From positions 1 through 38,857 of the forward strand of contig JBHJMP010000866.1 of assembly GCA_043381765.1 (NCBI GenBank): 38,857 nucleotides of DNA, given 5' to 3'. Under the pieces are notes generated by a model. That model saw nothing but the letters and a program-made list of their open reading frames with translations, did no database searches and was not told the origin of the DNA. A program made the translations under genes and the position numbers. The DNA is from Collodictyon triciliatum (taxonomy: Eukaryota). Positions 1-38,857 of this stretch are shown piece after piece (position 1 is the stretch's first letter; each line of letters begins with the position of its first letter).

Positions 1-41
<41 letters not shown>

Positions 42-170
42 AAAAAAAAAAAAAAAAAAAAAAAAAAACAAAAAAAACAAAAAAACAACAAAAAAACAAA
101 AAAACAAAAACAAAAAAACAAAACAAAACAAAAAAACAAAACAAAAAAACAAAACAAAACAAAACAAAAA
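1..170. repeat. Poly-A / (CAAAA)n low-complexity tract in an intron
   Basis: Direct reading; lies upstream of the acceptor CAG at 181-183. Confidence 0.9.
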
Positions 171-183
171 ACCTCTGTTCCAG

Positions 184-3100: not shown

Positions 3101-6100
3101 ACATTGGATATTAATGGCGGCTAAATGGGCACATCGGCTTCTGTGCATTGGTAATTTTTTTTCTCTTTTCTGATTCAGCAATATTTTTAGAGGAGGAAAT
3201 TTTATCTGACACAGTTTGTTTTCCATCTTCAAACACTCACATAGACACACATAGACACACAAAAAGACAAAAAAGACAAAAAAAAAAAAAAAAAAAAAGA
3301 CAAAAAAGACAAAAAAGAAAAAAAAGACAAAAAAGACAAAAAAGACAAAAAAGACAAAAAAGACAAAAAGAACAAAAGACAAAAAAGACAAAAAAGACAA
3401 AAAAGACAAAAAAGACAAAAAAGACAAAAAAGACAAAAAAGACAAAAAAGACAAAAAAGACAAAAAAGACAAAAAAGACAAAAAAGACAAAAAAGACAAA
3501 AAAGACAAAAAAGAAAAAAGACAAAAAAAGACAAAAAAAGAAAAAAAAAAAAAAAAAAAAAAGACAAAAAAAAGAAAAAAAAAGACAAAAAAAGACAAAA
3601 AAAGACAAAAAAAGACAAAAAAGACAAAAAAAAAAAGACAAAAAATATAACAAAATAATGACTGTATATCCTACTGTAACAAAATTTACTTTCCATTATT
3701 CTTTATTTTTCATTTTTTTTTCATTTCCCTTTTTCATTTCCCTTTTTCATTTCCCTTTTTCATTTCCCTTTTCATTTCCCTTTTTCATTTCCCTTTTTCA
3801 TTTCCCTTTTCATTTCCCTTTTTTTTTCTTCCTTCTTGCCTGTCTCAGGTGATTTGGCCTCTATGAGTTCAGTGTATGATATCCTATTGTCTCTTGTCAC
3901 CAATCTGGACTGGGAATATCAAATCGAAATACTTTGCATGTTTCCAAGAGATACAGATTTAAAGCTGTAAGTAATTCTTTTCTCTGCAAACAAACATCAA
4001 TCGTTTTTACATGCCCAAATTTTGTCAATTAATGAAGCAAATACTTTAATGGATGATGAACCTGAATCATAAATAACTCATTTATAGAAGCTCTCAAAAA
4101 TACAACAAAATATTGGAAGCGCTTCGGAAAAATTCACCAGAGAATTATGAAAAATTGAAAGAAAAATGGGCCACCATACAAAGGGTCTCTAATATTCAGG
4201 TAATTCTTTCCCCAGGTCCCTTCTCAGATCGACCCGTACAATTACTTATCCAATTAGTATTCAATGATACAGGGTATATGGGCTTGCGAAAGTGATTTAT
4301 CATTCATCGTATTTGTTCGATCTGCAATAAGTTTACCGTCTCAAATGGATATCATTCAAATACCTGAGCTTGATTCTATATGTAAGGGCCACTTCCACCA
4401 CAGAAAACATACATCACGAACCAATGATAATGTAATAATCTTATTTATCTACTACGTAACAAGTGTCTGCGATACATTCGAGTGAGAACGAACTAGATGA
4501 ATCAGAGTAAGTTTGATACTGACCTCTGTTGCGAATTTAAATGAGCATATTCTAATGATGATTTTCCTTTCTTTTTTTTTTTTTAACACTACCTACTAAT
4601 GCATTTTTAAATATTAATCATTTATCATCAACAATCTAAGTGGCTACATGCTCGAAAACGAATATGATGTGGACTCATATGAAGAGTCAGACAGCGTATA
4701 TGATGAAATGGAGAACAGCCGATATACCGAAGGAAATACATACGAGACAGTCCATACCGAAAGCGCCACATCACCAGATGTTCCTCATGAAAGGGTTTTA
4801 ATTGGTACAACGGACTCTCTTCCAAGAAGAATTTCTCAACACTCGATGAGTCTTGATGGACACAGTTTCTACAGCGAATCCCCAGTACCAAGCGTTTTGG
4901 AAGAACTGATCCCTAAAGCAAAGAAACTCGATTCCAAAGCGTTATCCCAGTTGCACACAATCCCCGAAAGTGACTCTGGAATTAAGGGAACCTCGCATGG
5001 CCAAGATTCTAATGTTGGAGAATCAAAATCTAGTCCTGAAAAGGGAGACTTGCTGTGTGATGACAGTAGAAACACTATCATTTTCCATGATTATCAAGGT
5101 CATGACGCGGTTGATATAGAGAATACCATAAATGAGCAAGGAAATAGCTTAACAGAGATACATCGGCAAGATAAGCGTGATGAAGCAAACGAAGAGGTTG
5201 ATGATTTCGACGGAGACCTTCCGATTTATGCCGATAAAAATCCTTTGAAAGTAAGCACCCCTCGCAGACCCACTTCAAATTCGATTATTTCTCCAAGGCC
5301 AACAAAAGATACAGCCGCGCCTCAAACTCAGCGAGTTCAATCCATGCTTCTCACAGTCGAATCATCCCCGATTGAAAGTCCCATGGAGATACTTTTCTTC
5401 CCTCAGACAGGCATGCAGTTGCCAACCCCATCCTTCCCAGGTAAAATATCATTCACGCACCTTATCATGAAAGAAATAATGAAAAAAGCTGCAAATTATC
5501 TCCAAGAGGGTGAATTAGTGGTTCAAAATTGTTTTGGACAACATTAGTTTCCTCGCTTATAATTATCTTTAGTGCATAATTTGCAATATATTTCCCTTTT
5601 GATTAGAAGCTTTTTTTTTTTCATTCTATTTTCCTTTCATGCAAATTTTAACACCTCATCTATTTCTTTTTCAACTCTTTATTATATTTATAAAAAACCG
5701 ATCTATTTAAAGACATCAAGGCGCCTGGTGACGCTACTAAAAGTCTGGAGCCAAGTGTTGCAGCTCTACCTCCTGATAGACCAGAAACGATGGATTCGAA
5801 CTCAGGTTCACATCAGCTTCTGCCCGACCAGAGTGGACTTCACCAGGAAACAAAAGAGCTTTTGAGCAGTGCGATGGTATTATTGCAAAGGATGGAGGAA
5901 AAGATGAACCGGTTGGAAATGAAGAGCCCAAGCTCTCGCTCAATCAGCACAAATTCACTGGATGTTCAGCCACAAAGCCCAAGAAATGTAAAAAGCCCTC
6001 GTTCGTCCTCACTAGGGACTTATCAACCAGTCCAAATAACGACTGCAGGTGGTTCTACATCCATCCAGGGATTCAGACAGACCCCATTCCTCCATCTTTT

Positions 6101-17686: not shown

Positions 17687-20600
17687 CTAGCCAGTGTAGC
17701 TCAGAACAGTGTTATCAAGCTTTTCCTTGTAAGCCTCCAGCTTCCTCTTGATTTTCGCCATTCTTTCTCCATCACACCGCGATACGATGGCTCGGAATGC
17801 TCCAAAGACAGGCCTGATTATGTGCCAGACAAAAGGAACCAAAAACGCTGCAATAAAGCAGCCATTCAACCCGATGACTGCAAAGGCTATCCAATCATTT
17901 CCTGGGACGAGCTTCTGAACCAGCGCAGCGAAGAAGGATATATAAAGCAAGAGCCAGCAGTTGATGGAAAAGTTGTCATCTGATTCGAGAATGTACGGCT
18001 TGAAACGCGTTTGGAGTGTAATCGAAAACTGGTGGTTTATAAAGGGGATTTTAAAAGATATGGAGCAGTTGGCCTGTCAATTTGAATATTTTCAGGGGTG
18101 GGGAAAATAACCACAAATACCTGAATCAGGATGAAAAAGACAAAGTAAAGGATGGCCGGAGACGTGTACGGAACCACAAACGCCGCAAAGCTGAAGAATA
18201 TAGACTGAATCACACGGACGATGACCCACCAATCATGTCTCTGTGAATATAAATCTGGTCAACACTTTTGAAACCAAACAGGTAATTCTGTGTAAGAAGA
18301 AAAAGAAAAGAAAAGAAAAGAAAAGAAAAGAAAAGAAAAGAAAAGAAAAGAAAAGAAAAGAAAAAGAAAAAAGAAAAAAGAAAAAGAAAAAGAAAAAGAA
18401 AAAGAAAAAGAAAAAGAAAAAGAAGCCAAAAAGACAAAAAAGACAAAAAAGACAAAAAAGACAAAAAAAGACAAAAAAAGACAAAAAAAGACAAAAAAAG
18501 ACAAAAAAAAAGACAAAAAAAAAGACAAAAAAAGACAAAAAAAAGACAAAAAGACAAAAGTGTGGATAATGCGGCTGAAATTAACCTCTTCATAAACAGC
18601 TGAAAATCGGTCGATTTGAATCTGGCACATAAGGTGAATAGTGGATTGCGATAGGTCAAGTTCCTTGGATCCTTCCTTTTTTGAATTTGATTCTTCAGCA
18701 GTGTCTGCCTTTTGCTGTTCACCTGTTGATGATGGCCCTGCAGGTTCTTTCTCTTTGAAGTCATGGTTGACAGACAGACCACCTCCTGGACTCACAGGAG
18801 TAACATCTATCTCATTCATTTCTATGTCGATAGCTTTGCATTCAATGGTGGTCGATTTCTCCTAAAATCCTTTTATTAGTACGCATGAACTCACAGGAAA
18901 CATACTGAAAACGAAATGAAAGGACATACCATGTTTTTTTCGTTACCATCGTAATTGTGTTCATGTTGCCTCGATTTCCTCGCCCTAGCGACGATGTACC
19001 ACAGAAATCGAGGGTATGCAAACATGTAAATCATACCAGGAATCACAGCTAGCAGCATGAAAAGGTAGTTGTCTGTTACAGGGCTACACTGGATCCAGGG
19101 ATATGTATTCACAAACCACAAATCGAGCCCTTTGTCATACAAAGTACATCCGAATGTGCCGATGACATCTTGAACGACAGAAAAGTATGTTGCCTCGAGG
19201 AAAGTAAACATAACAACTACAACCTACATTGTTCATTATTTTGTTAAGGCCATATTCTTTAGCTGTTTTTGGAATAGAAAATTGTGTCGATTTATTTCAA
19301 TTGCGTATCTTTGGGCCGGTATAAATTTGATGAGCCTGATAACCTTTTCAACATTCTTGGTATCTCTCTTGGCCAGGACTTTCTTCAAAACAAGGAAGCC
19401 AACCAGCACAACCAAAGGAATTCGAGCCAAATTCAAAAGAGAAGTGTAGTGTGGCTTATTTCCAACCAAACACTCGAGAGTCGGCAACTTGAGCGAAAAT
19501 AGAGAACTGACAAACCTTCCAGCAGAGTTAACAAATGGAACAGATACAATATTCCCCAGAACTTGAAGAATTTGAGTGTAAAAAAGGAAAATATCTAAAG
19601 ATGCTGAAGTGAGGTGGTTTAGAATGCAAGTAAAGGCTAAAATAGTGAAGATTTACGATTACCTGAATCATGATTTTCTTCACTTTCATCATGCTCTTCT
19701 TTTGTGTCATCGACGTCCATACTTTCTTCGATCCACGCCAGTCCAACTTGATAAATCCCGCCAATAATTAGTAACACTATGAAAGCAACAACCTTGATGA
19801 CTGAATAATCAGACGAGCATTCATTGCATTCCCCACTCTCGAATAGGTATCCATCCTCACAAGAGGAACAATCTCTCCCGGTGTACCCTTTTTCACAGGG
19901 GAACTCATAGGAGCCATTATTAATCTGCATTCTCACATTCGTCTCATCCTTGACAAGAAAGTTACAGACGTCTGGATTCAAGCAGGGAACTAGGTCGACA
20001 ACCCTCGTGATGTTTGGTGTGAAGTAGCACCTTCTCAATGTGATTCCATCACTGCAGTCGCATTCTGTCGGGCATTTCATGCAATTATTTCCAAAGCCAA
20101 AAAATCCTGGTAAGCATTTGCATAGTCCGTAATCGTAGTAATTTGGATTCATATCAACATCAAGTATGGCTGATCCGAATGTGGATATGATTGAAGGGCA
20201 CGTGTACGAGTCTGCAGTTTTTTCCAAAGTATATGAGTTCGTTTGATTCATAAATGAAGGAATGAAGTTGGCTATTCCATGATTCATGGAAGTGTTTTGA
20301 ATTCCAAGGTATTCCAGGGACAGGAAGCGACTGTATGACTCAGGAATATTTCCCACAGTCGGGTTTCCTGAAACATCGAAATGTGTCCAACTGATGGGAT
20401 TTCCGGGTTCTCCAAGTTTGGTGATATTATTGTCTCTCAAACTAAATTTTTTCAAATGATCGCCCAGATATTCGAATATCTTCCAATTGAGCTCACCCGA
20501 GAATCGGTTGTTATCAAGAATGAGAGTATCGTAATAGTAAATAGGATCAGCACTAAAATTAATCACGAAAGATGCAACATCACCTGAGAAAATATTGTTT

Positions 20601-23600
20601 GATAGATCTATTGTGCTAATATTGGGAAGAATCCAAAATCCAGCCGGTAGGCGCCCAGAAAATCGATTATTTGACAAAACTAATGTCTCAAGATTTTTGA
20701 AGTCTTGAAGCATTTTTGGTAATTCACCATCTAATTTATTAGATGAAAGTATGATTGTCTTGATAGAAGGGATGGCCCAATCAGATGGAACAGAACCAGT
20801 CAATAAATTTTCGCTGATATCTAGAACCGACAAGTAACTGTGCCTGAATGACGGGAGCGGGCCACTTAGTCTGTTCTTAGACACTAAAATTTCCTCTATA
20901 TGAGGGCAATTTTCAAAGTTGGGCAGCTCTCCGTCCAACTGATTATCAAATGTGTCCAAATATTTTAATCTGGGAAGGTTTGAAAATTTTCCAATCGTGC
21001 CTGGTTTCCCGAAATTGAAACAATCAATATTTCAATTTACAAAAAGAAACTTGAGTGATTATTGTCACATTACAAGTAATTTTACCCTCAAGTCGATTCT
21101 TTGATACGAATAAATACTCCAGATTACTCAGGTTCGAAAAATCGGGCAAAGTCCCTATAAGGTTCATGCGAAGTAAGAAAAAGTGGATACATCTCTAACC
21201 TTTTTGGAAAATTATAAAAACTATAAACCTGATAGAAAATTATCGGACAGGAATAACGCTACCAGATTTGGCATATTTTTGAAATCAGGTATTGGTCCTA
21301 ATGAAACGGGGAAGTAATTATATTCATAAAATACATAAAGATGTCAATCAATTATATTAAAGTGCATCACAATACTTGCCTTCCAATTCGTTGTAAAAAA
21401 GAAAAATGATCCTGATATTTTCTATCCCCTTAAAGTCAGGGATAGTACCTAAACATGAAGTAATAAGTTTTCAATGAAAGTCATGAATGAGTGCAGATGC
21501 TACTTCAAAAGTATGGCACCATTACCAGTTAATATATTGTCTGAAAAGTTTATGTCATGAACCACCGGAAGGTTCATGAATTCGGGTAAAGAACCTATTA
21601 GGATAATATAATATATGTATATATTATAACGTCAATGAATAGAAAATTATATATTCATTCTTATTGAATTACTACCGTTCAAACGATTATTCGAAAGATC
21701 TAGTGAGATACACCGAGGGATATTTTCAAAACTAGGAATTGAGCCTATAATTGAAACAAGACGTTGAATGCTTTTAATGTGAAAAAGGTGATGAGCAAAA
21801 TGGTAATTCCATATTTTACCATGCAATCTATTGTCAGAGAGGTTGATAATTTTTATGTTGGCGATGTGACTGAAATTTGGCATTTCTCCTATAGGAAAAT
21901 GTACTGTTTTGAAGGAAGGTGTGTAGTTGTGTATGGAGATTTAAATGGGTATCTGTGTTTTTTAAAAAGGAAATTTTCGTATTTAAGAAGATAAGAAAGA
22001 ATCAAAAATATTGATTTGCCATCGCACCGGTTATCAGATTAAAATGGAGGCTTAAATCAATCAAATTGGGAACAAACTCAAAGTCGGGAAGTGTTCCTAC
22101 ATGATAAGGGAATTATGTGATAAACAATAAACTAGATATCCATCAATGTCGCATAGAAAACCCATGAGCACTATTAAAAGGAAAAATCCGCTTTCACCTG
22201 TCAATTGGTTATCAAACATAGTGATGTTTTGGATATTGGGTACACCACTGAAATTAGGTGTCGTGCCTGTAGTAATTAAAATGTGCTGATATGTACAAAT
22301 GTGACTTCTTTAATCATCGGGTCGATTTTTTTTTTAAAAAAAAAAAACTACCAGACAATTTGTTCAAGAATACATTGATCACGATAACGTTTGGTATTCT
22401 ATTGAAATCGGGTATTGTTCCTGAGAAAAATATTTGTTAGTATTGAAAAAGTGGAATATGCACTTAGATTTGATCATTAATAGCACCTGTCAGCTGATTA
22501 ACGAATAAAAATATCATTCGAACATTAGCTAAGCCGCTGAAATTCGGTATTGTTCCTAAATTTCATGTGTTAAATAATGAAGATAATACCCGAGGCCATT
22601 TTTCTATCAACATTTTTTTGTTGGATATAGGACGTTACGTGATATACATAAACTGATTACCTTTCAATTTATTGATGGAAAACTGAATGTAAAGTACATT
22701 CGGAATATCAGAAAAGTCTGGCACCGTACCTATTCAAGAGATGTCTAAGGGGCTGAATTTGTGTTAGTTAATTATATAACAGCAAGCTGACCAATCAGTT
22801 GATTATCTTCCAGCCTGATATATTGGATGTTTGGAAGTCCACTGAAATTTGGGATTGTTCCTAAAGTAAATTCATTAGTGCATTGAATCATAAGAAAATT
22901 GTGTATTCCAAATTTGTAATTCTCACCGGACAGCTTGTTCATAGAAAAATCAAAAGTAATGATATTTTGTACGCCGTCGAAGTCAGGTATGGTTCCTCAA
23001 AAGATAAAGTAAGAATATTTGAATTGAATGAAATGAGAGGTTCTATGTCACTCAATCAATAAGGTATTTACCAGTAATTTGATTATCCATTAGGAAAATA
23101 TATTGAATATGGGGTAAGCCACTAAAATTTGGAATTGCTCCTGTATGTAGAATTGAGTATGTTAAAATGAAGGTAGTATTTCCCATAGCGAAATTGGACA
23201 AATAATTTAATATTTTCTTATACTCAACAGATAATTGAATATAGTTAATAATCCTACCTCTTAATTTGTTAAGAGAAAGATCGACGTAAATCACATTCAT
23301 AATCCCAGAAAAGTCGGGCAGCGTACCTAGAAATAAGTCATTAGTATTGTTGAACATACCTTCAAGATTCAAACCAAACGTCAAACTTACCAATCAGTTG
23401 ATTATCTTCCAGCCTGATATATTGGACGTTTGGAAGTCCACTGAAATTCGGGATTGTACCTGAAGTAAATTGATTAGTTTGTTATATCAGGAGAAAGTGG
23501 TATACATCTGATAAGGTATTTACTATACCAGATAGGCTGTTATTGGAAACAAAAATGCTAATTATATTATATATCCCACTGAAGTCAGGAATAGTTCCTA

Positions 23601-24670
23601 AACAAACAAAAAATTACGCGGTGAGGATAATCTGGAAATATATATGGATGAAGACACGAAATTCGCACTTGATAAGCATCAAAATTAGGAAATCATGTTC
23701 TGAAACAACCTGAAATTTTGTTATTCGAGAGGTCTATTTGGCTCAGATATGGAAAGCTAAAGTCAGGTAGGGTTCCAAAGATCGAGTTTGAACTCAAGTC
23801 AAGTTCCAACAAGAGTACAAAATTTTGAATAATTGGCGGTAACAGTCGAATGTCTCCATAAAGATTGTTGTTCGACATCAGTATATGTGATATCGGGCAT
23901 GTATTTTCCTGATTTTGAAATAGCGTGATGAAAAATATATCACATTAAAAATGAAAGAAAGCTTTGAAAGATGAATTTGTATGGGATTCTATCAATACGA
24001 AATCATACGAAATAATCCTCAATGGAGCAGAAAGAGTGACAGGCAATTCCATTCCAAAAACATAATGGAATGGTTTCATCCTTCCATCCATCCTTATTTT
24101 TCCAATTATCCCCTCCAAGTAAATCATAAAAAAAGTACAATAGTTCAAGCTGTCCGATTTCTTTCCTTTTTGGGTTATTTTCTATGGGGTGGCTGCCATT
24201 TTTACTGTAAGCTGAATAAAGGTCTGATAGTTGTATTGCATGGTCTTCTTCGATCTGATTGTGCGATTTTCTCAGTTTGTTACCATATAGACTATCAGGT
24301 TTATCGGCATATATTTCGCCACCGTTCTCATTCAGAAAACAATTTGAACTCTCCAGATAATTTTGTTCAAGGTACAAAGAACTAGCACATGTCTCTTCGT
24401 AATATTTGAGTAGTATTTCAAGCGCGTCTTCAGGTTTCATGGACAAAATCTCATCTCGAGTGTATTGACATCTAGAACTGAAGGATATGTGTTAGAAATC
24501 TGAGGAGAAGGAAGACATCAGGGTAATCCATCAAAGCAAACCTTCGAGAGGAGACCGCAAGAGAAATCAGGGACACAAGCACCATAATTGAAAGGAGGAT
24601 AGTTATGCTTTTCAAACGAAAGCTACTTGATTTCTTTCCTCCATTATTTACGTTGTGTGACCTGTATTAA

Positions 24671-27159: not shown

Positions 27160-30100
27160 ATGGCCAGTCAGACGCAAGTCTACCAAGTCCCGGGTAAGCT
27201 TCAAAACCCCTTTCAGCAATCATCTTCCCGCACTCGTATTCCTGTGACAGGCCGCCCGAGGGCCGCTCTCGATTTCAACCATAAACACAATCGTTGAAGG
27301 AATAGAATAAAAAAAAAGGAAAAGAAATAATAGTCATCAACGGTGTTTTTTTTTTGTTTTTCTGACTTAACATCAACTACTCCCAACTCTTTTTTTCTTT
27401 TGTCTTTGTTGTTCCCACAGTCATCTTTCCTGACATCCTACCTGCGGAGGCCATACTTCAAACGCTCGACGCGCTGGATTATCTTGATTCTGTCGTCAAT
27501 GATGTTTTCACAAAGATTGCTGCTCGCGTTTGTTATTTTTTTTTTAATCAACACGCTCTGGTTTTTTTTTTTTAACCCCGCTTCTTTTGGCAACTGGGGT
27601 CGCTTTTCTGAGGATCTCAAAGTACTTTCGATTGAAGTGAAAAGCTTGTGTTCACCCCATGCATGTGGTGTCATGTTCAATATTAGCATGTTCTCACTTT
27701 TTTTCTCCCTTTGTCCTTATCTTCATTTTTTTTCTTATTGCGAGCAAATACATGAAATCATACAGTCTCTTGAGATCGTTTTTCTCTCTGATCAGTTTAC
27801 TTGAGTCCCAGTCATCCCTTTCATATTCTTCGATCATGGTTGCAGGTGGATCAGAACAGGAAGAAGGTGGAACACTTGGGACAGAGATTGGCAATTGTCG
27901 AGGTTTGACAAAAAGAACTGAAGTCATATCAGCTGAACAAAGACTCCTTTAATAGATGTGTCACTTGGATAATTCTAGAAAGTTTGAAAAAAAAAACAAA
28001 GTTGATTCAGATGCACTAAGCTTATGTTAAGCCAAAATATTACTGCATGCGATATAAATCAAAATGTGGAGCCAATCTCTCAATGTATATCTGTATTTAC
28101 AAACGCTTAGAAAGACACCCAATTCATCGAAGGAAGCAAAAGTGCCACTCTGGTCAAATCTGCTGCAAAATATCCGGCCCCGAAGCTCCCAAATAATTAT
28201 GCGCCCATCTACCATGATGTTCCAGTCCATGTACCAGACCGCAATGAATACGAGCTTCCTGAAAAGATGCCTGTGAGTTCCAGTATTTATCTGCTGGCAC
28301 AGTTTATATTTGTTACTGAGTATAAATCCAGAAGGCATACGAAAAAGTCAAAGCATATCAACCATGTCACATACTTTACTCTTCTTTGCAGTATTTTCAA
28401 AAACTTAAATGCATGTCCATATGTTTTGAAAAAAAGCAACCAGCTGCGCATATATCTGACTCCATGGTCGAAGTAGTCGCCATGTTAGACTCTACAGGAA
28501 AGTCCAAAATGAAGATTGCCATGGTAGCCACCGCATCATATCTCTTTATTATAAAATGCTGTCTTCATTAACCTACAAATGTCCACTTGGTCTATTTTTC
28601 CCTCCAATTCTATTTTAACGCATAACCTTGTTACCTTTTTTTTTTGTTTTGTTTTTTCGGCTGATACATTGAGTATTGATATATCCTATCTAGTGTTTGA
28701 AAATGATGTACGTCCTCTTTTTCATTCTATATCGTGTTTTTCTCTCTCCCCGCAGGATGGCATGGGAAGACTTCCAGACAATCTCTTGTCTGCATCAAGC
28801 TTGCTTCTGTTTAACAGCGATGAAAATCCGTACAAGAATTACATTCACCTGGACAATTTACTTGGTGTCGAAGGAAAGGACCGTCCATCTCAAAAGAAGC
28901 GCATCAGAGCTCAGCCAGAGTCATTCATCAAGGGGGATGGCGTCGTTTGTTTCATCACGCCACTTGATCTCCTCTTTCCTCTCATTAACTGTCATCTCCA
29001 AAATCTATTCAAGTTCGCAACATTCATGGCTCACTTTTTTTTTTATTTTTCTTTTATCGTATACGACCATTTTTACGTCGAGATTTCATCGTAGCTAGTC
29101 TTTGTCCTCCAGCTTGACACAAGATTTGCATTGTTATCTGACTGTAGGGCGGCGGAACTGGTCAGGACATAAGATACAAGCCTGTAATAGGCAACGTCCC
29201 TGTCCTGGATACTCCTGAGAACATGCCTGGGCTTCAAAATATCGCCGATATCAGTCTTTCAAGTATTTAGTTCCTAAATATTTAGGTTTTGGGGAAAGAA
29301 AATAAAATATCTTCTAGGTATCGCCCAATAGTGTGCGATATATTACTTGAGGATATTGTTAAGTGATAAAATTAAGAAAAATAATAATCCGTCTGATTCA
29401 CATAAAAACACTCCTCCATCAACCCGCAGCCATGGAGCTTCCCCCAATCGCCCCATCCACCGACTCCATTCTGAGCCTCCCTGATTTTTCTGGTGGGACT
29501 TGAACCTATCAAATCATATCATATCATATCATATCATATCATATCATATCATATCATATCATATCATATCATATCATATCATATCATATCATATCATATC
29601 ATATCATATCATATCATATCACATCACATCACATCACATCACATCTTGAAACAGGAGCTACCACTCCCGGTTGGAACAGCATCACCAGCCGAAGCGCATA
29701 TCCTGGCGGCTCGGGACCAAACTCTGCGCCTCCGCCTCCGCCCCCTGGAAACGCAGAGGGAGGATTCCCACCACCGCCTCCGCCTCCGCCCGGTGCATTC
29801 TCCGAAGCAGATGCATCGTCAGGATTCTTCCCGCCTCCACCTCCGCCGCCTCCACCCGGTGCATTCGGCGCGTCTGCATCACAGTCCAACCCGAACTCTT
29901 CGTTTGCCGCGCCACCTCCGCCACCTCCGCCACCGCCTGGATTCTCGTCTGCTGGCTACAATGGCGGCAATGATGATGAAGATGAATCCACCTTCGGCAC
30001 ATCGGCCTTCCCTCCGCCACCTCCGATGTTCTCCTCCGCTGCCCCGACTGCGGCTGACGATTTTGGTTTCACTCATGACTTTATTCCAATCATCATTGCC

Positions 30101-31074
30101 ATCGTTTTATATTTTTGACTATTATTATCAGGATTATTTTGTGGACTAGATTCCTTCATCGCTTCTCATTTATTTATTCACATTCTTGGTATGTCAATCT
30201 GCTTTTATAAATGGACAAATGCATTAATAAGTAAATAAAATCGCAGACGAGACCGCAGGCTTTGAAGAGCTGACCTCGAGAGCACAGCCTGAACCTGCAG
30301 CACCTGGTGAGTCTAATCAATTATTTTGTAAACTCCAAAAAATGAAAAAAATGAAAAAAAATGAAAAAAAATGAAAAAAAAATGAAAAAAAATGAAAAAA
30401 AATGAAAAAAATGAAAAAAATGAAAAAAAAGAAAAAAAATAAAAAATAAAAAAAGAAAAAAAATGAAAAATGAAAAATGAAAAATGAAAAATGAAAAAGA
30501 CAAAGAGAATGACAAGAGATGAGAGATATCAGTAGAACGCAACGCTGGACACTTTACCCGCCTATCTGACAACTAAATACCAAATTACCTTCCGTAATCA
30601 CTCGACATCATTTTTGACGCACAACCCACACAACCAGCGATGGACTTGTTTGCCCAAATCCGCGCGAACCAGAAAGAACGCTTGCGAAAGGTAGAATCGC
30701 AGCCTGTCGAAGCACCAAAAGCTCCGCCACCGGGCGACATGTTTGGGACGCTTATGCAGGGCCTTGAAATGCGGCGCAAAGCCATCAAAGAGGAGGACTC
30801 CGACGACGAGACAGAGGACGAGTGAGTCAGCGAAGCGAAAAAAACCCGACCAGTTTTCTAGACACTCGCCTACATCTCCTTTTCTTACGCCGTCTTCTGA
30901 AATATGTTTGATGTGTTATCGCTTGAGACGTCGCCTGGACAACCAACCGAACGACTTATTCAATGATTGCTTGCATTTTCTTACTCTTTATATGTCTCTT
31001 CTTGCATTCCTTTCATTTTCTTTTCATTCTTTCTGGTATCTAATGCATGTGCTGGTACGTTGTGTAGTTGGTAG
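27160..31074 (+). CDS. WASHC1: WASH complex subunit 1 (WASP-family Arp2/3 nucleation-promoting factor)
   Basis: MASQTQVYQVP|VIFPDILPAEAILQTLDALDYLDSVVNDVFTKIAAR, then SAAKYPAP and the WAHD signature GMGRLPDNLLSASSLLLFNSDENPYKNYIHLDNLLG (~28760-28866). Poly-proline exon ~29655-30066. WH2 MDLFAQIRANQKERLRKV, central GDMFGTLMQGLEMRRKAI, acidic EEDSDDETED|DW* completed by exon 31068-31074. Confidence 0.93.
29513..29645. repeat. (ATATC)n grading into (ATCAC)n microsatellite in a WASH intron
   Basis: Direct reading. Confidence 0.93.
30337..30497. repeat. (AAAAAAATG)n degenerate microsatellite in a WASH intron
   Basis: Direct reading. Confidence 0.88.
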
Positions 31075-31506: not shown

Positions 31507-34500
31507 ATGGACGCGCTTATGAGTCGCCGCCTACTCTATCAGTTGATGATGAGGTGATTGACGTTGTATTTATATTATATTTATATTTATATTTATATTT
31601 ATATTTGTATTCATATTTATTTCTTCCTTTATTTCTTTATTAGTTGTTTTTTTTAGTGTTATTCTTCGCCCTCTCTTTTTTGCATTATGTCAAGCGGCCT
31701 TTGAGAAAGCAGTTGCTGAAGTTGCAGTGACCTCCCTCTTGTATTTTTGTTTTGATATGCTTTAATCTTTCTATGGTTTCAGTCAGCTCAGCGCGGATGG
31801 GTTTCCGATCGTGGCTTCTCAGCTCTCCCAAGCGTCCATGATTCGTGAGTTTATTAATTGATATATATATATTTATTTTATTTTTTTAATTATTTATTTC
31901 TTCTCACAGCCCAGCCTGAAGAGGGAGCCTTTCCTGAGAATTATCTCTTCAATCTCATGTCTGTGGGTTTAGCCAACGATGGTGGTTCATGGGGTCAGAA
32001 GCTGTATTAAATATATGAAACATAAATCCGCCTGTTATTGCTGCTGCTTATATATCGAATCCAATTGTTCACCTGCTTCGTTACACACTGGCAGATGACA
32101 TCCCATCATACAAGAAGGTATCACCGGCCAACAGCCTGTTGAATGACATAAGCGCACCTGGTACTCACCATTGATGATATTTGGCGTCTCATTTTTTTTT
32201 TTTTATGATGTCCACAGTCTCTCCATAAAGACCTAGCAAAGATAAATAGCAACCTTGCGTCTATATACTTATGACATCTCAAATGTAACGCAATATGCCT
32301 GAATAAGCTTATGGTTTATTGAAATTAACATAACCAACGATTTATATTAATTACAAAACGACGATACAATAAAAGAAGACAAAGATACTAAAAAAAATAC
32401 TTAAAAATATCCATAATGTAAATATATAAGGACAAAAAGCTGCCATTTTTCATAAAAAGCAAATGACCAAGGATTTCAATATGTATTTTCAGAGAAAAAG
32501 AAGAAAATAGCCGGGATTGCAAACTCGTCCGTCATTTCACTTCCTCAAGTTGGGCAAATTGTCAGGTTCAGTCCGGATGGTGGGCCCTTTTTTTGCATGA
32601 TATACGAAAATGAAATATTATTTTACGTTGGTGCTTGCAGTATGTTTATGAATATTCTTTTTTCACCATATTCGATGGAATCTATTTTACCATCCGACTT
32701 GATGAACTTTCCAATCGGCTGAGCCTAACTCCTTGCGCTCACTCTGTAGGTCAACACCTCGCAGTTACTTTGAGTGACAACCAAGTTCGCATTTTGGATG
32801 CTGAGAGACTTTGTAATCCTTCCGATGGTGTAATAATAACTCATAGCAAATCGATTATCACATTGCTATGCCTAAAACAACTTCTATAAATGACTCGAAA
32901 AATGTTTGAAGATGCTCATTTATTTCTAAACGTTGGTCGTGGGTCAGGTTATGCGTGTAAAGCTGAATGCACTATCTTTTTAAAGTCCTATCCTTCCCTT
33001 TTATACTACCCAGGTCGAACAGGAAACACTATCAAAGACTGCAACTCTTCGTATTTTGGCTGAAAATAGAGAGGTCTTTGTCTGCAAATGACTGATCTAA
33101 TCCCTTCTTTGCATATCAATAGCATATGATAAATATTTCTTCCAGGAAAGTGTCTCGTTACTTCAAGAAGAAAATGATTCTATCGTTTTTAATGCAGTTT
33201 TTTTTTATTCGGGCAGCCAATCACCGATGTTTCGTTCCATCCATTTATCCCGATGGTGGCTACATGTTCATCCGATTGCTCCATCCGCATCTTTGATTAT
33301 CAAAAAGCATTTTCGAAAAAATCACACCTTGCCTTAACCGTATAAATCTTGCTTAAAATCAAACATTGTTTGTCTTTTTCATTTCGAAAGCTTATAATCG
33401 CGGCAATTTTGCAAAATTTTGTAATGTGTTTTATCGTTATGGTTTTTTTCTCCCATTTTAATCTCTCGATTAGTTTCATTTTTTTTTTTTGTGTGTGTAT
33501 AAAAAAAGTTTACTCACTATATTCGACTATGCAGGATACGCATTCTGTGAACAGCATAGATTTTCATCCGTCTGGACAATTTTTACTGTGCGGCACGAAT
33601 CACAACTTAGTTCGTCTTTATGACGTCAAGAATGCGCCATATGAATGTTACACATCGCGCGAACGGGCTCAACACTCACACGGGATTAATGTGGTGGGTT
33701 TATCACCAGCTTTGCTTCATTTCTAAGATTCATATTTTTATTTACGAGAATGAAAGCTTCTTTTTTTTATTTTTACTTTATCCTTGAAATTACTGAACAT
33801 TTACTATCGAGACATAATATACATATACTGTAAGTATGAGGGGCGATAGACACCTTTTGTTGACATCCTTTCTGACATATAGTCCTTTCCTCTACTTTAA
33901 AAAATCCATCCAGTTTTATTTTTAATATGATGAACTTATTTATGTGGTTATTTATTCATTCATTCATATGTGTCATCAGGTGAAGTTTTCAAAGGACGGC
34001 TCCATGTTTGCCACGGGCTCTCAAAACGGGCTTGTTCGAGTCTGGGATGCCGTTTCGTTCACACCCATCAAAACCTTCAACCACTCAATCCGACACCAAG
34101 AGATTCAATCCTTGGAGTTTTCGAGAAACGGCAAGTACATTTTGTCTGGAGGGAAAGGTTTGTTGTTCGCCATCATAAGCGCAGAGAAGATTATAAATAA
34201 CGAGTCTCAAAAAAATCGGAGGCAAAGGAATGACTTCAATTTATTTTAACAACAATATATATTCACTAATGACGCGTGTCTCTTCCTCGTCCTAATACCA
34301 CAGACGCAATACTCAAACTGTGGGACATTAGAAAAGGTTTGCAGCCCATCGGATTTATTAAACATATGACATCATTATTTATTGATTCCTCTCAGCCGAA
34401 TGCAGCGCAGCACAATTTATTCGTATGGCCTCTGGGGTCAATACATGATGCCGATACTAAATCCCATTGTTCTGATTATCGCTCATATCATAGACCAACC

Positions 34501-35088
34501 GCTGCTGTCCTTCAGTGGATTCCACATTGTTTGATTTGATTTGATTTGATTTGATTTGATTTGATTTGATCTGATTTGATTTGATTTGATCTGATTTGAT
34601 TTGATTTGATTTGATCTGATTTGATTTGATTTGATTTGATTTGATTTGATTTGATTTGATTTGATTTGATTTGATTTGATTTGATTTGATTTGATTTGAT
34701 TTGATTTGATTTGCCTCACTATGCCCATGGAATGATTCCTCGCCTCTAAATGAAGCATCGCCGTACAATCGGGGCGTTCAGCGGAGATGAAGCGCATGTG
34801 ATGGCAACAGATGCATCAAACAACAGTATTGTTCTATGGGACACACACACCGGCGAGTATAGCCACCGCATCCTTGGTATTATTTTTTCCACTTTGATTT
34901 TCTTTTCTTTTCTTTTCTTTTCTTTTCTTTTTCCCAAAGCGTGTTCCTCAACCACCTTCTTTGTAGGCCATCGCGCCCCTGTTCTTGGCATCGCCTCATC
35001 ACCAACCGAAGCACTGGTCTTCGCATCCACAGCAGGAGACAAAACTGTGCGCCTTTGGTCAACACCCAGACAAGAATCGCCCATCTGA
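31507..35088 (+). CDS. CSTF1: Cleavage stimulation factor 50 kDa subunit (CstF-50), N-terminal dimerisation domain + WD40 repeats
   Basis: N-terminus MDALMSRRLLYQLMMS|QLSADGF resembles the CSTF1 dimerisation motif (RQQLYKLIISQLLYDGY, recalled). WD40 exons SVNSIDFHPSGQFLLCGTNHNLVRLYDV, VKFSKDGSMFATGSQNGLVRVWDAVS, LEFSRNGKYILSGGK|DAILKLWDIRK, HRRTIGAFSGDEAHV..IVLWDTHTG, GHRAPVLGIASSPT..TAGDKTVRLW. TGA at 35086-35088. Confidence 0.88.
34530..34713. repeat. (TTTGA)n microsatellite in a CSTF1 intron
   Basis: Direct reading; begins at the GTTTGA donor. Confidence 0.93.
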
Positions 35089-35530: not shown

Positions 35531-38571
<3,041 letters not shown>

Positions 38572-38758: not shown

Positions 38759-38856
<98 letters not shown>

Positions 38857-38857
38857 T
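38759..38857. repeat. (ATT)n microsatellite running to the window end
   Basis: Direct reading. Confidence 0.92.

Follow-up and report, generated by a model that had tools for sequence, protein, structure and literature searches.

The stretch of DNA analysed here (the window) comprises 38,857 nucleotides (nt) of Collodictyon triciliatum, contig JBHJMP010000866.1 of assembly GCA_043381765.1. On its minus strand lies a gene with a long array of exons that each encode one leucine-rich repeat (LRR), and an initial annotation, made from the sequence alone, had proposed that this array could act as a combinatorial recognition system in a protist surface receptor. We scanned both strands of the whole 38.9-kb window for segments bounded by AG and by GT or GC that held an open frame and an LRR motif. 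The array consists of 17 consecutive exons, all of them exactly 69 nt long and each encoding a single LRR of 23 amino acids (aa). Sixteen of the 17 were recovered by the motif filter, and the remaining one (21676-21744), which has a serine in place of D/N at motif position 4, came from a local scan. Beyond one 66-nt match within the large exon downstream and alternative-boundary versions of the array exons themselves, no LRR-motif exon was found elsewhere in the window on either strand. Between positions 21000 and 23700 there were 17 open phase-1 segments of the form AG-69 nt-GT/GC, compared with a mean of 1.8 and a maximum of 6 in 200 shuffles.

The splice signals of the array were regular. 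All 17 exons follow an AG acceptor, and 16 are followed by a GT donor and one by GC; donor strength varies, several of the GT donors being nonconsensus. The 16 internal introns measure 62 to 139 nt, and the two that flank the array measure 112 and 85 nt. All 18 introns bounding array exons are in phase 1 and cut a glycine codon after its first base, so that the joined array (1,173 nt) reads as one open frame of 390 complete codons. The introns are poorer in GC than the exons (0.29 versus 0.36), have T-rich acceptor regions, and in several cases carry CTAAT/CTAAC-like motifs upstream of the acceptor. Introns 3, 5, and 12 (117, 66, and 75 nt) have lengths that are multiples of three and contain no in-frame stop; three such introns among 16 may be due to chance. 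The layout described in the initial annotation, with 17 consecutive exons of one LRR each separated by introns of about 60 to 140 nt, was thus recovered in full. Its deduction that any exon can be skipped or duplicated without a frameshift also stands, since exons of 69 nt with phase 1 on both sides can be removed or added in frame.

Around the array, the gene model runs from 24585 to 17687 and joins 26 exons into a coding sequence of 4,548 nt (1,515 aa) without an internal stop (Table 1). Its splice sites comprise 24 GT and 1 GC donors and 25 AG acceptors. Outside the array, the boundaries were set by homologue guidance, using tblastn with the Diphylleia rotans proteins P0122, P0124, P0125, and P0128. 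Upstream, the start of exon 2 aligns with the N terminus of P0128, and its cap aligns with the cap motifs of P0125 and P0128. The end of exon 3 and the start of the large exon share the phase-1 glycine position of the array. The LRRs encoded by the large exon are uninterrupted by introns, as the initial annotation had stated, and lie in a single frame of 464 codons (19637-21031). Further downstream, P0124 and P0125 both retain the acidic stretch that precedes a candidate 26-nt intron and the helix beyond that intron. The model as a whole is collinear with P0125 (model residues 34 to 1474) and P0128 (295 to 1469), and residues 867 to 1465 are 41.7% identical to residues 1 to 570 of P0124, with collinearity through to the C terminus. 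The longest intron of the gene holds a low-complexity (AAAAAGACAA)n tract, and a similar (AAAAAGACA)n tract lies elsewhere in the window.

Table 1. Positions of the array-bearing gene, its parts, and other features of the window
Feature	Positions	Strand	Remarks
Exon 1 (tentative): ATG at 24585 and short hydrophobic signal-peptide-like start, MVLVSLISLAVSS...	24542-24585	minus	GT donor at 24541; in frame
Exon 2: N-terminal region, ending in LRR N-terminal cap (Cys/Trp motif)	24009-24477	minus	open reading frame; acceptor tentative
Exon 3: end of cap and first 2-3 LRRs, without introns	23710-23908	minus	phase-1 end in Gly codon
LRR exon array	21086-23597	minus	17 exons and 16 introns, all phase 1
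Array exons 1-6	23529-23597, 23391-23459, 23258-23326, 23072-23140, 22927-22995, 22792-22860	minus	
Array exons 7-12	22661-22729, 22487-22555, 22352-22420, 22198-22266, 22028-22096, 21820-21888	minus	
Array exons 13-17	21676-21744, 21526-21594, 21380-21448, 21229-21297, 21086-21154	minus	
Array exon 15	21380-21448	minus	sole GC donor in array
Array intron 5	22861-22926	minus	66 nt
Array intron 12	21745-21819	minus	75 nt
Large exon, 1,338 nt: about 9-10 intronless LRRs, Cys-rich stalk, first transmembrane (TM) helix, acidic stretch	19663-21000	minus	Pfam LRR_1, LRR_4, LRR_8
Candidate 26-nt intron (GTAA...TTTTAG)	19637-19662	minus	required to hold frame; other introns 62-345 nt
Five exons: multi-pass membrane module and cytosolic loop	19344-19636, 18930-19223, 18586-18861, 18121-18240, 17687-18028	minus	stop codon 17687-17689
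Longest intron of the gene, 345 nt	18241-18585	minus	(AAAAAGACAA)n tract fills 18300-18559
(AAAAAGACA)n tract	3261-3631		similar to tract of 345-nt intron
WASH-complex WAHD domain match	28555-29094	plus	PF11945, E = 3.2e-11
Proline-rich open frame	29504-30118	plus	downstream of WAHD match
(TATCA)28 microsatellite	29507-29645		in WASH-like region
WD40-repeat gene, several exons	33346-34249	plus	Pfam WD40
(TTTGA)37 microsatellite	34530-34713		follows WD40-repeat gene
Poly-A-rich start of window	1-171		
(TTA)33 and (TAT)33	36251-36349, 38759-38857		

The model is predicted to encode a surface protein that starts with a signal peptide and an LRR cap, continues with about 29 LRRs in a solenoid and with a Cys-rich stalk, and ends in about nine TM helices and a cytosolic tail. 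The combination of extracellular LRRs, a Cys-rich region, and several TM segments had been put forward in the initial annotation, and it is borne out by the collinearity of the model with full-length D. rotans homologues and with the roughly nine TM helices in a structural model of P0124. Three full-length relatives, P0125 (1,780 aa), P0128 (2,178 aa), and P0122 (1,869 aa), have their parts in the same order as the gene model. The Diphylleia family (P0122, P0124, P0125, and P0128) shares with it the cap motif, LRRs of 22 to 23 aa with the G-x-x-P-x-F pattern, the stalk with its invariant cysteines, the acidic stretch after the first TM helix, and a collinear multi-pass module with a W-W motif. 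Identity between the two is only 30 to 46%, however. Several relatives also carry NIDO domains at the N terminus, whereas the gene model has none.

Searching with the Cys-rich stalk and first TM helix (HMMER) returned 211 representatives at E ≤ 1e-3, of which 59 were at ≤1e-10 and 18 at ≤1e-30, the best being 40 to 46% identical. With the Cys-rich module, phmmer gave E values of 2.4e-57 for P0124 and 3.9e-56 for P0125. Twenty of the 211 representatives were looked up: 11 were D. rotans transcripts, 2 came from Rhodelphis marinus, 4 were environmental, and Rigifila ramosa, Planoprotostelium fungivorum, and Papus ankaliazontas contributed 1 each. Judged by the array-bearing gene, the nearest sequenced relatives are collodictyonids. 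Across 50 relatives, 15 cysteines of the stalk are invariant, and the number of LRR motif matches per protein ranges from 0 to 36, with a spacing of mostly 22 to 24 aa. We infer that diversity in this family comes mainly from many paralogues that differ in LRR number rather than from splicing.

Other searches added little to this family. A protein word-index search with the Cys-rich region alone gave no match; at similar length, it gave two weak LRR matches (30 to 33% identity) and no close paralogue or protein of the same organism. Among longer proteins, the results were dominated by generic plant-type LRR proteins, matched in the LRRs only at 25 to 38% identity. In a metagenome scan with the Cys-rich piece, 51 stretches fitted the pattern and none was confirmed, and one metagenome locus (L001; 2,014 nt, GC content of 0.49, obtained with P0127 as the query) held no 69-nt LRR exons when scanned.

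We also looked at the membrane module. Within the large exon, Pfam recognized no families other than those of LRRs, and four more frames of the gene on the minus strand gave no match at all; neither the pieces of the window nor 10 relatives matched a seven-transmembrane (7TM) family. The AlphaFold model of P0124 (608 residues, covering stalk and membrane module) had a predicted local distance difference test (pLDDT) score of 84.9 and a predicted template modelling (pTM) score of 0.83. In this model, a beta-rich domain with many cysteines leads into about nine long helices; there is also a single disordered loop, which would be cytosolic given LRRs outside the cell. Foldseek found no match to this model in the PDB at E ≤ 0.001, and chains of G-protein-coupled receptors appeared solely at E > 1. 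A wide search with VIA-align reached a best Z of 7.7 over 73 aligned residues, a value that helical bundles can reach by noise; the 608-residue model was searched as a whole, and we draw no conclusion of a new fold. The membrane module (P0124 residues ~160 to 600) thus combines a confident prediction with the lack of a Pfam family or a convincing relative among solved structures. A language-model lead towards fungal TRP-like membrane proteins came from an Atlas feature search, with clusters in which PF06011 (TRP) was present in 18 to 25% of members; hmmscan found this family in 0 of 10 relatives at E ≤ 1.

Next to these findings on the gene and its family stand those on the repeats themselves. 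Alignment of the 17 repeats bears out the contrast drawn in the initial annotation between a conserved framework (G-x-x-P-x-F, N-x-L) and exposed beta-strand positions that differ strongly. P3, F5, and N19 are present in 17 of 17 repeats, L21 is present in 15, and the junction glycine is present at 16 of 16 junctions; the variable strings listed earlier, QYIRLED, IYVDLSL, and others, were confirmed. Entropy at the exposed positions was 2.5 to 2.8 bits (positions 12, 13, 15, and 18) and 1.8 bits (position 17), compared with 0 to 1.7 bits in the framework. Greater variability at exposed positions is normal for any LRR solenoid and is no sign of a diversifying system. Residues on the concave face are frequently hydrophobic (I, Y, F, and V).

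Between array exons, the proportion of synonymous differences (pS) was 0.61 to 0.88 in all classes, which amounts to saturation. The proportion of nonsynonymous differences (pN) was 0.5 to 0.6 at concave positions and 0.15 to 0.23 in the framework, and the dN/dS ratios were 0.7 to 0.8 and 0.2 to 0.25, respectively. Because synonymous sites are saturated, these ratios neither show nor exclude positive selection. The excess of nonsynonymous change at exposed positions that the initial annotation would have led one to expect was not seen, pN there being no higher than pS.

The order of the exons carries a record of how the array grew. Exons 1 to 12 strictly alternate between two types, distinguished by D or N at position 4 and K or Q at position 20: type A reads G-T-x-P-D-F...N-K-L, and type B reads G-T-I-P-N-F-S-G-L-P-N-x-Q-Y-I...D-N-Q-L. 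Exons 13 to 17 follow the pattern less regularly. On average, two exons of the same type have 41.4 of 69 nt in common and two of different types 34.4, a difference reached by only 39 of 20,000 label permutations (32 of 20,000 when the pair of exons 2 and 6 was left out). The alternation in exons 1 to 12 indicates that the array grew by tandem duplication of a two-exon unit. Together with one exon pair that is identical at 66 of 69 nt, it backs the view that the array was built by exon duplication. We also considered independent insertion of an intron at the same site in each repeat and rejected it, as duplication of an exon together with its intron explains both the phase and the A/B periodicity more simply. 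On this view, exons were duplicated in tandem together with their introns time after time, over most of the array as units of two exons, with unequal recombination between equivalent introns as the likely route.

The age of the copies appears to be uneven. Since synonymous sites are saturated and the introns can no longer be aligned, the array copies appear to be mostly old. Intron identities between array units are close to background, except beside exons 2 and 6. These two exons differ by two synonymous changes and one V/I replacement. Upstream, their similarity runs on for about 45 nt of intron, and downstream for about 12 nt, before it decays (a 128-nt repeat, 85%). Neighbours of the pair at the same four-exon offset share just 50, 46, and 42 of 69 nt. 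Of the 136 exon pairs, that of exons 2 and 6 is the only one above 50/69 identity; the rest range from 26 to 50. We take the pair to reflect the recent copying or conversion of one exon over about 130 nt, so that exchange at the scale of single exons probably still occurs now and then.

The reading that accounts best for all of this, and which we hold to be probable, is that of an intact 26-exon gene for a surface protein, with a mostly old, duplicated array that is constitutively spliced into one long solenoid. Constitutive splicing is the most likely fate of the array exons, and the resulting solenoid would form a ligand- or partner-binding ectodomain. The modular layout would act over evolutionary time, as LRRs are gained, lost, or replaced in frame. 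One alternative, that the array is a decaying or misassembled repeat region outside any functional gene, draws on the need to assume a 26-nt intron downstream to keep the frame. It is barely credible given that all 17 exons are open with their framework residues and splice signals in place, that the 4,548-nt model is free of internal stops and runs collinear with homologues that are expressed, and that framework pN lies far below pS. Exon shuffling still in progress in the germ line, as proposed for the ROCO genes of Ectocarpus, would make the array a recombination hot spot, with strains and paralogues differing in the number, order, and sequence of their exons and receptors thus diversified at the level of the population. 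The exon 2/6 copy or conversion, with its tract decaying in the flanking introns, speaks for such a process, and the uniform exon length and phase and the wide range of LRR numbers in the family (0 to 36 motif matches among 50 proteins) are compatible with it. We nevertheless regard it as rather unlikely: apart from that pair, the exons share 26 to 50 of 69 nt with saturated synonymous sites, the motif scan found nothing on the plus strand, the introns are too short to hold a stray exon, and frequent reshuffling would be expected to disturb the A/B order, which holds over 12 exons.

The initial annotation itself had favoured somatic diversity, in which regulated or stochastic skipping of cassettes would yield many receptor isoforms recognizing prey, pathogens, or kin. 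The short array introns (62 to 139 nt) speak against it; short introns are usually spliced under intron definition, which favours intron retention over exon skipping. We aligned 35 Trinity isoform sequences from 11 Diphylleia clusters and found that 0 of the 35 showed a clean gain or loss of whole LRR units (multiples of 23 aa) in the LRR regions; the isoforms of these closest relatives differ by truncations, alternative termini, and small indels. The A/B order and the many hydrophobic concave residues suggest a co-adapted continuous surface, which the loss of a single exon would break. In favour of skipping, any subset of the 17 exons could be removed in frame, and donor strengths vary (one GC and several nonconsensus GT). 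Multiple splice variants have been reported for brown-algal genes with shuffled 72-bp LRR exons (PMC11378527), and the LRR exons of human NLRP3 are alternatively spliced (PMC6642158). Weighing both sides, we consider somatic diversity of this kind very unlikely. Combinatorial use of the array is unsupported by our results, the permissive layout being the only hard fact in its favour, and we give it little credence. In its specific form, single LRR exons or A/B pairs would be skipped, stochastically or under regulation, and a nine-TM receptor would thereby vary from cell to cell or between conditions, a scheme we find decidedly improbable. If it were true, the array would represent a Dscam-like diversification of recognition, independent of those in animals and algae, in a deep-branching heterotrophic flagellate, and the membrane module of the diversified receptor family would have no match among solved folds.

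Several observations weigh against the intact, constitutively spliced gene that we prefer. Three elements of the model are no more than predicted, namely exon 1, the exon 2 acceptor, and the 26-nt intron, the last of which could instead be a frameshift in the assembly. Introns 3, 5, and 12 are open in frame, so that their retention would preserve the reading frame, and the copy or conversion event seen in exons 2 and 6 means that the array is not wholly static. The isoform comparison comes from another species and from short-read Trinity assemblies in clusters of 90% identity, which can miss skipped isoforms. Among those isoforms, P0281 lacks 12 aa (GPIPNFCCIPNL) relative to P0283, starting exactly at the conserved repeat glycine (column 549), which may mean that an intron homologous to those of the array has a second, alternative acceptor. 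There is also a 46-column gap in the alignment of P0293; we read it as an artefact because it is one of six scattered gaps that place a divergent tail of 37 residues.

The rest of the window is rich in simple repeats (Table 1). The WAHD match and the proline-rich frame downstream of it probably belong to a gene for a WASH-like actin regulator, and the WD40-repeat gene lies beyond them on the same strand.

Set against known systems, the array belongs to the exon-modular LRR arrays: its exons are of identical length, encode one LRR each, and have the same phase on both sides. It is an unusually clean case of one exon per repeat, in a lineage and a protein family for which it has not been described before; supplementary files aside, literature searches turned up no account of 69-bp LRR exon arrays in protists and none of LRR proteins in Diphylleia rotans. 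What proved most useful beyond the array itself is the recognition of a large, unnamed family of LRR/Cys-rich/~9-TM surface proteins in predatory protists, and the locus would offer a direct test bed for the combinatorial use of modular LRR exons in a protist if the organism can be cultured.

Unlike the plant LRR receptor kinases and receptor-like proteins (for instance ERECTA, with a single TM segment and a kinase or short tail), our protein has no kinase domain and a multi-pass C terminus. The Dictyostelium protein ComC is an LRR and EGF-like multi-pass membrane protein that acts in cell-cell communication. The model PF24141 (LRR_ComC), which may match any similar LRR, scored above the cut-off in 1 of 10 scanned relatives and below it in 2. 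Vertebrate glycoprotein hormone receptors and the related LRR-containing G-protein-coupled receptors (LGRs) have about one LRR per exon of similar size, a Cys-containing hinge, and a multi-pass domain that lies largely in one big exon. Their membrane domain, however, is a 7TM domain of the rhodopsin type, whereas our protein matched no 7TM family and has about nine helices in the homologue model. In the gonadotropin receptors, the layout of roughly one LRR per exon comes with intron phase 2 (PMC11378527). For the LRR exons of human NLR proteins, strict modularity has been described as a precondition for alternative splicing, which was demonstrated in NLRP3 (PMC6642158). Those proteins differ from ours in being cytosolic, in their LRR class, in their exon sizes, and in having splicing demonstrated in NLRP3.

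The closest precedent is found in brown algae, where, as the initial annotation had noted, one-LRR-per-exon genes with proposed exon shuffling do occur (PMC3341825, PMC11378527). Their LRR-ROCO and LRR-kinase genes encode one LRR per 72-bp phase-2 exon (Zambounis et al. 2012, PMC3341825; Front Plant Sci 2024, PMC11378527). These arrays bear the marks of recent, dynamic shuffling, with similar exons, exons on the noncoding strand, and exon numbers that differ between recent duplicates, and the hypothesis of an immune or recognition repertoire has already been published for them (PMC3341825, PMC11378527). They share with our array the single LRR per exon, equal exon length, symmetric phase, many consecutive exons, and a proposed origin by exon duplication or shuffling. 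They differ in exon length and phase (72 bp, phase 2, versus 69 nt, phase 1) and in the protein, which is a cytosolic LRR-ROC-COR GTPase or a kinase in brown algae, whereas ours has extracellular LRRs, about nine TM helices, and no GTPase or kinase match. Neither a ROC-COR GTPase nor a kinase domain was found by Pfam after the LRRs, in the large exon and the four further frames, and the C terminus is multi-pass. The brown-algal exons are recently shuffled, while ours are mostly old and ordered: dynamic shuffling of the Ectocarpus ROCO type was not apparent in our array, with pS at 0.6 to 0.9, 1 of 136 pairs above 50/69, and 0 exons on the plus strand.

A second precedent comes from Tetrahymena, which has tens of thousands of LRR exons of exactly 90 bp and phase 2 across its genome, each encoding a 30-aa unit (Xiong et al. 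2019, PMC6564038). Their uniformity was credited to exon duplication or shuffling, and most of the proteins lack TM domains (PMC6564038). Both cases involve protist LRR genes with strikingly uniform exon length and intron phase, and they differ in unit, at 90 bp, phase 2, and 30 aa versus 69 nt, phase 1, and 23 aa. The authors state that, to their knowledge, no other eukaryote has tandem exon arrays of comparable uniformity (PMC6564038), and our array provides a small-scale counterexample to the uniqueness stated there. The exon length and phase of the array set it apart from the known arrays and thereby point to an independent origin. Exon-per-repeat LRR arrays would thus have several independent origins, their units measuring 69 nt (phase 1) in our gene, 72 bp (phase 2) in brown algae, and 90 bp (phase 2) in Tetrahymena.

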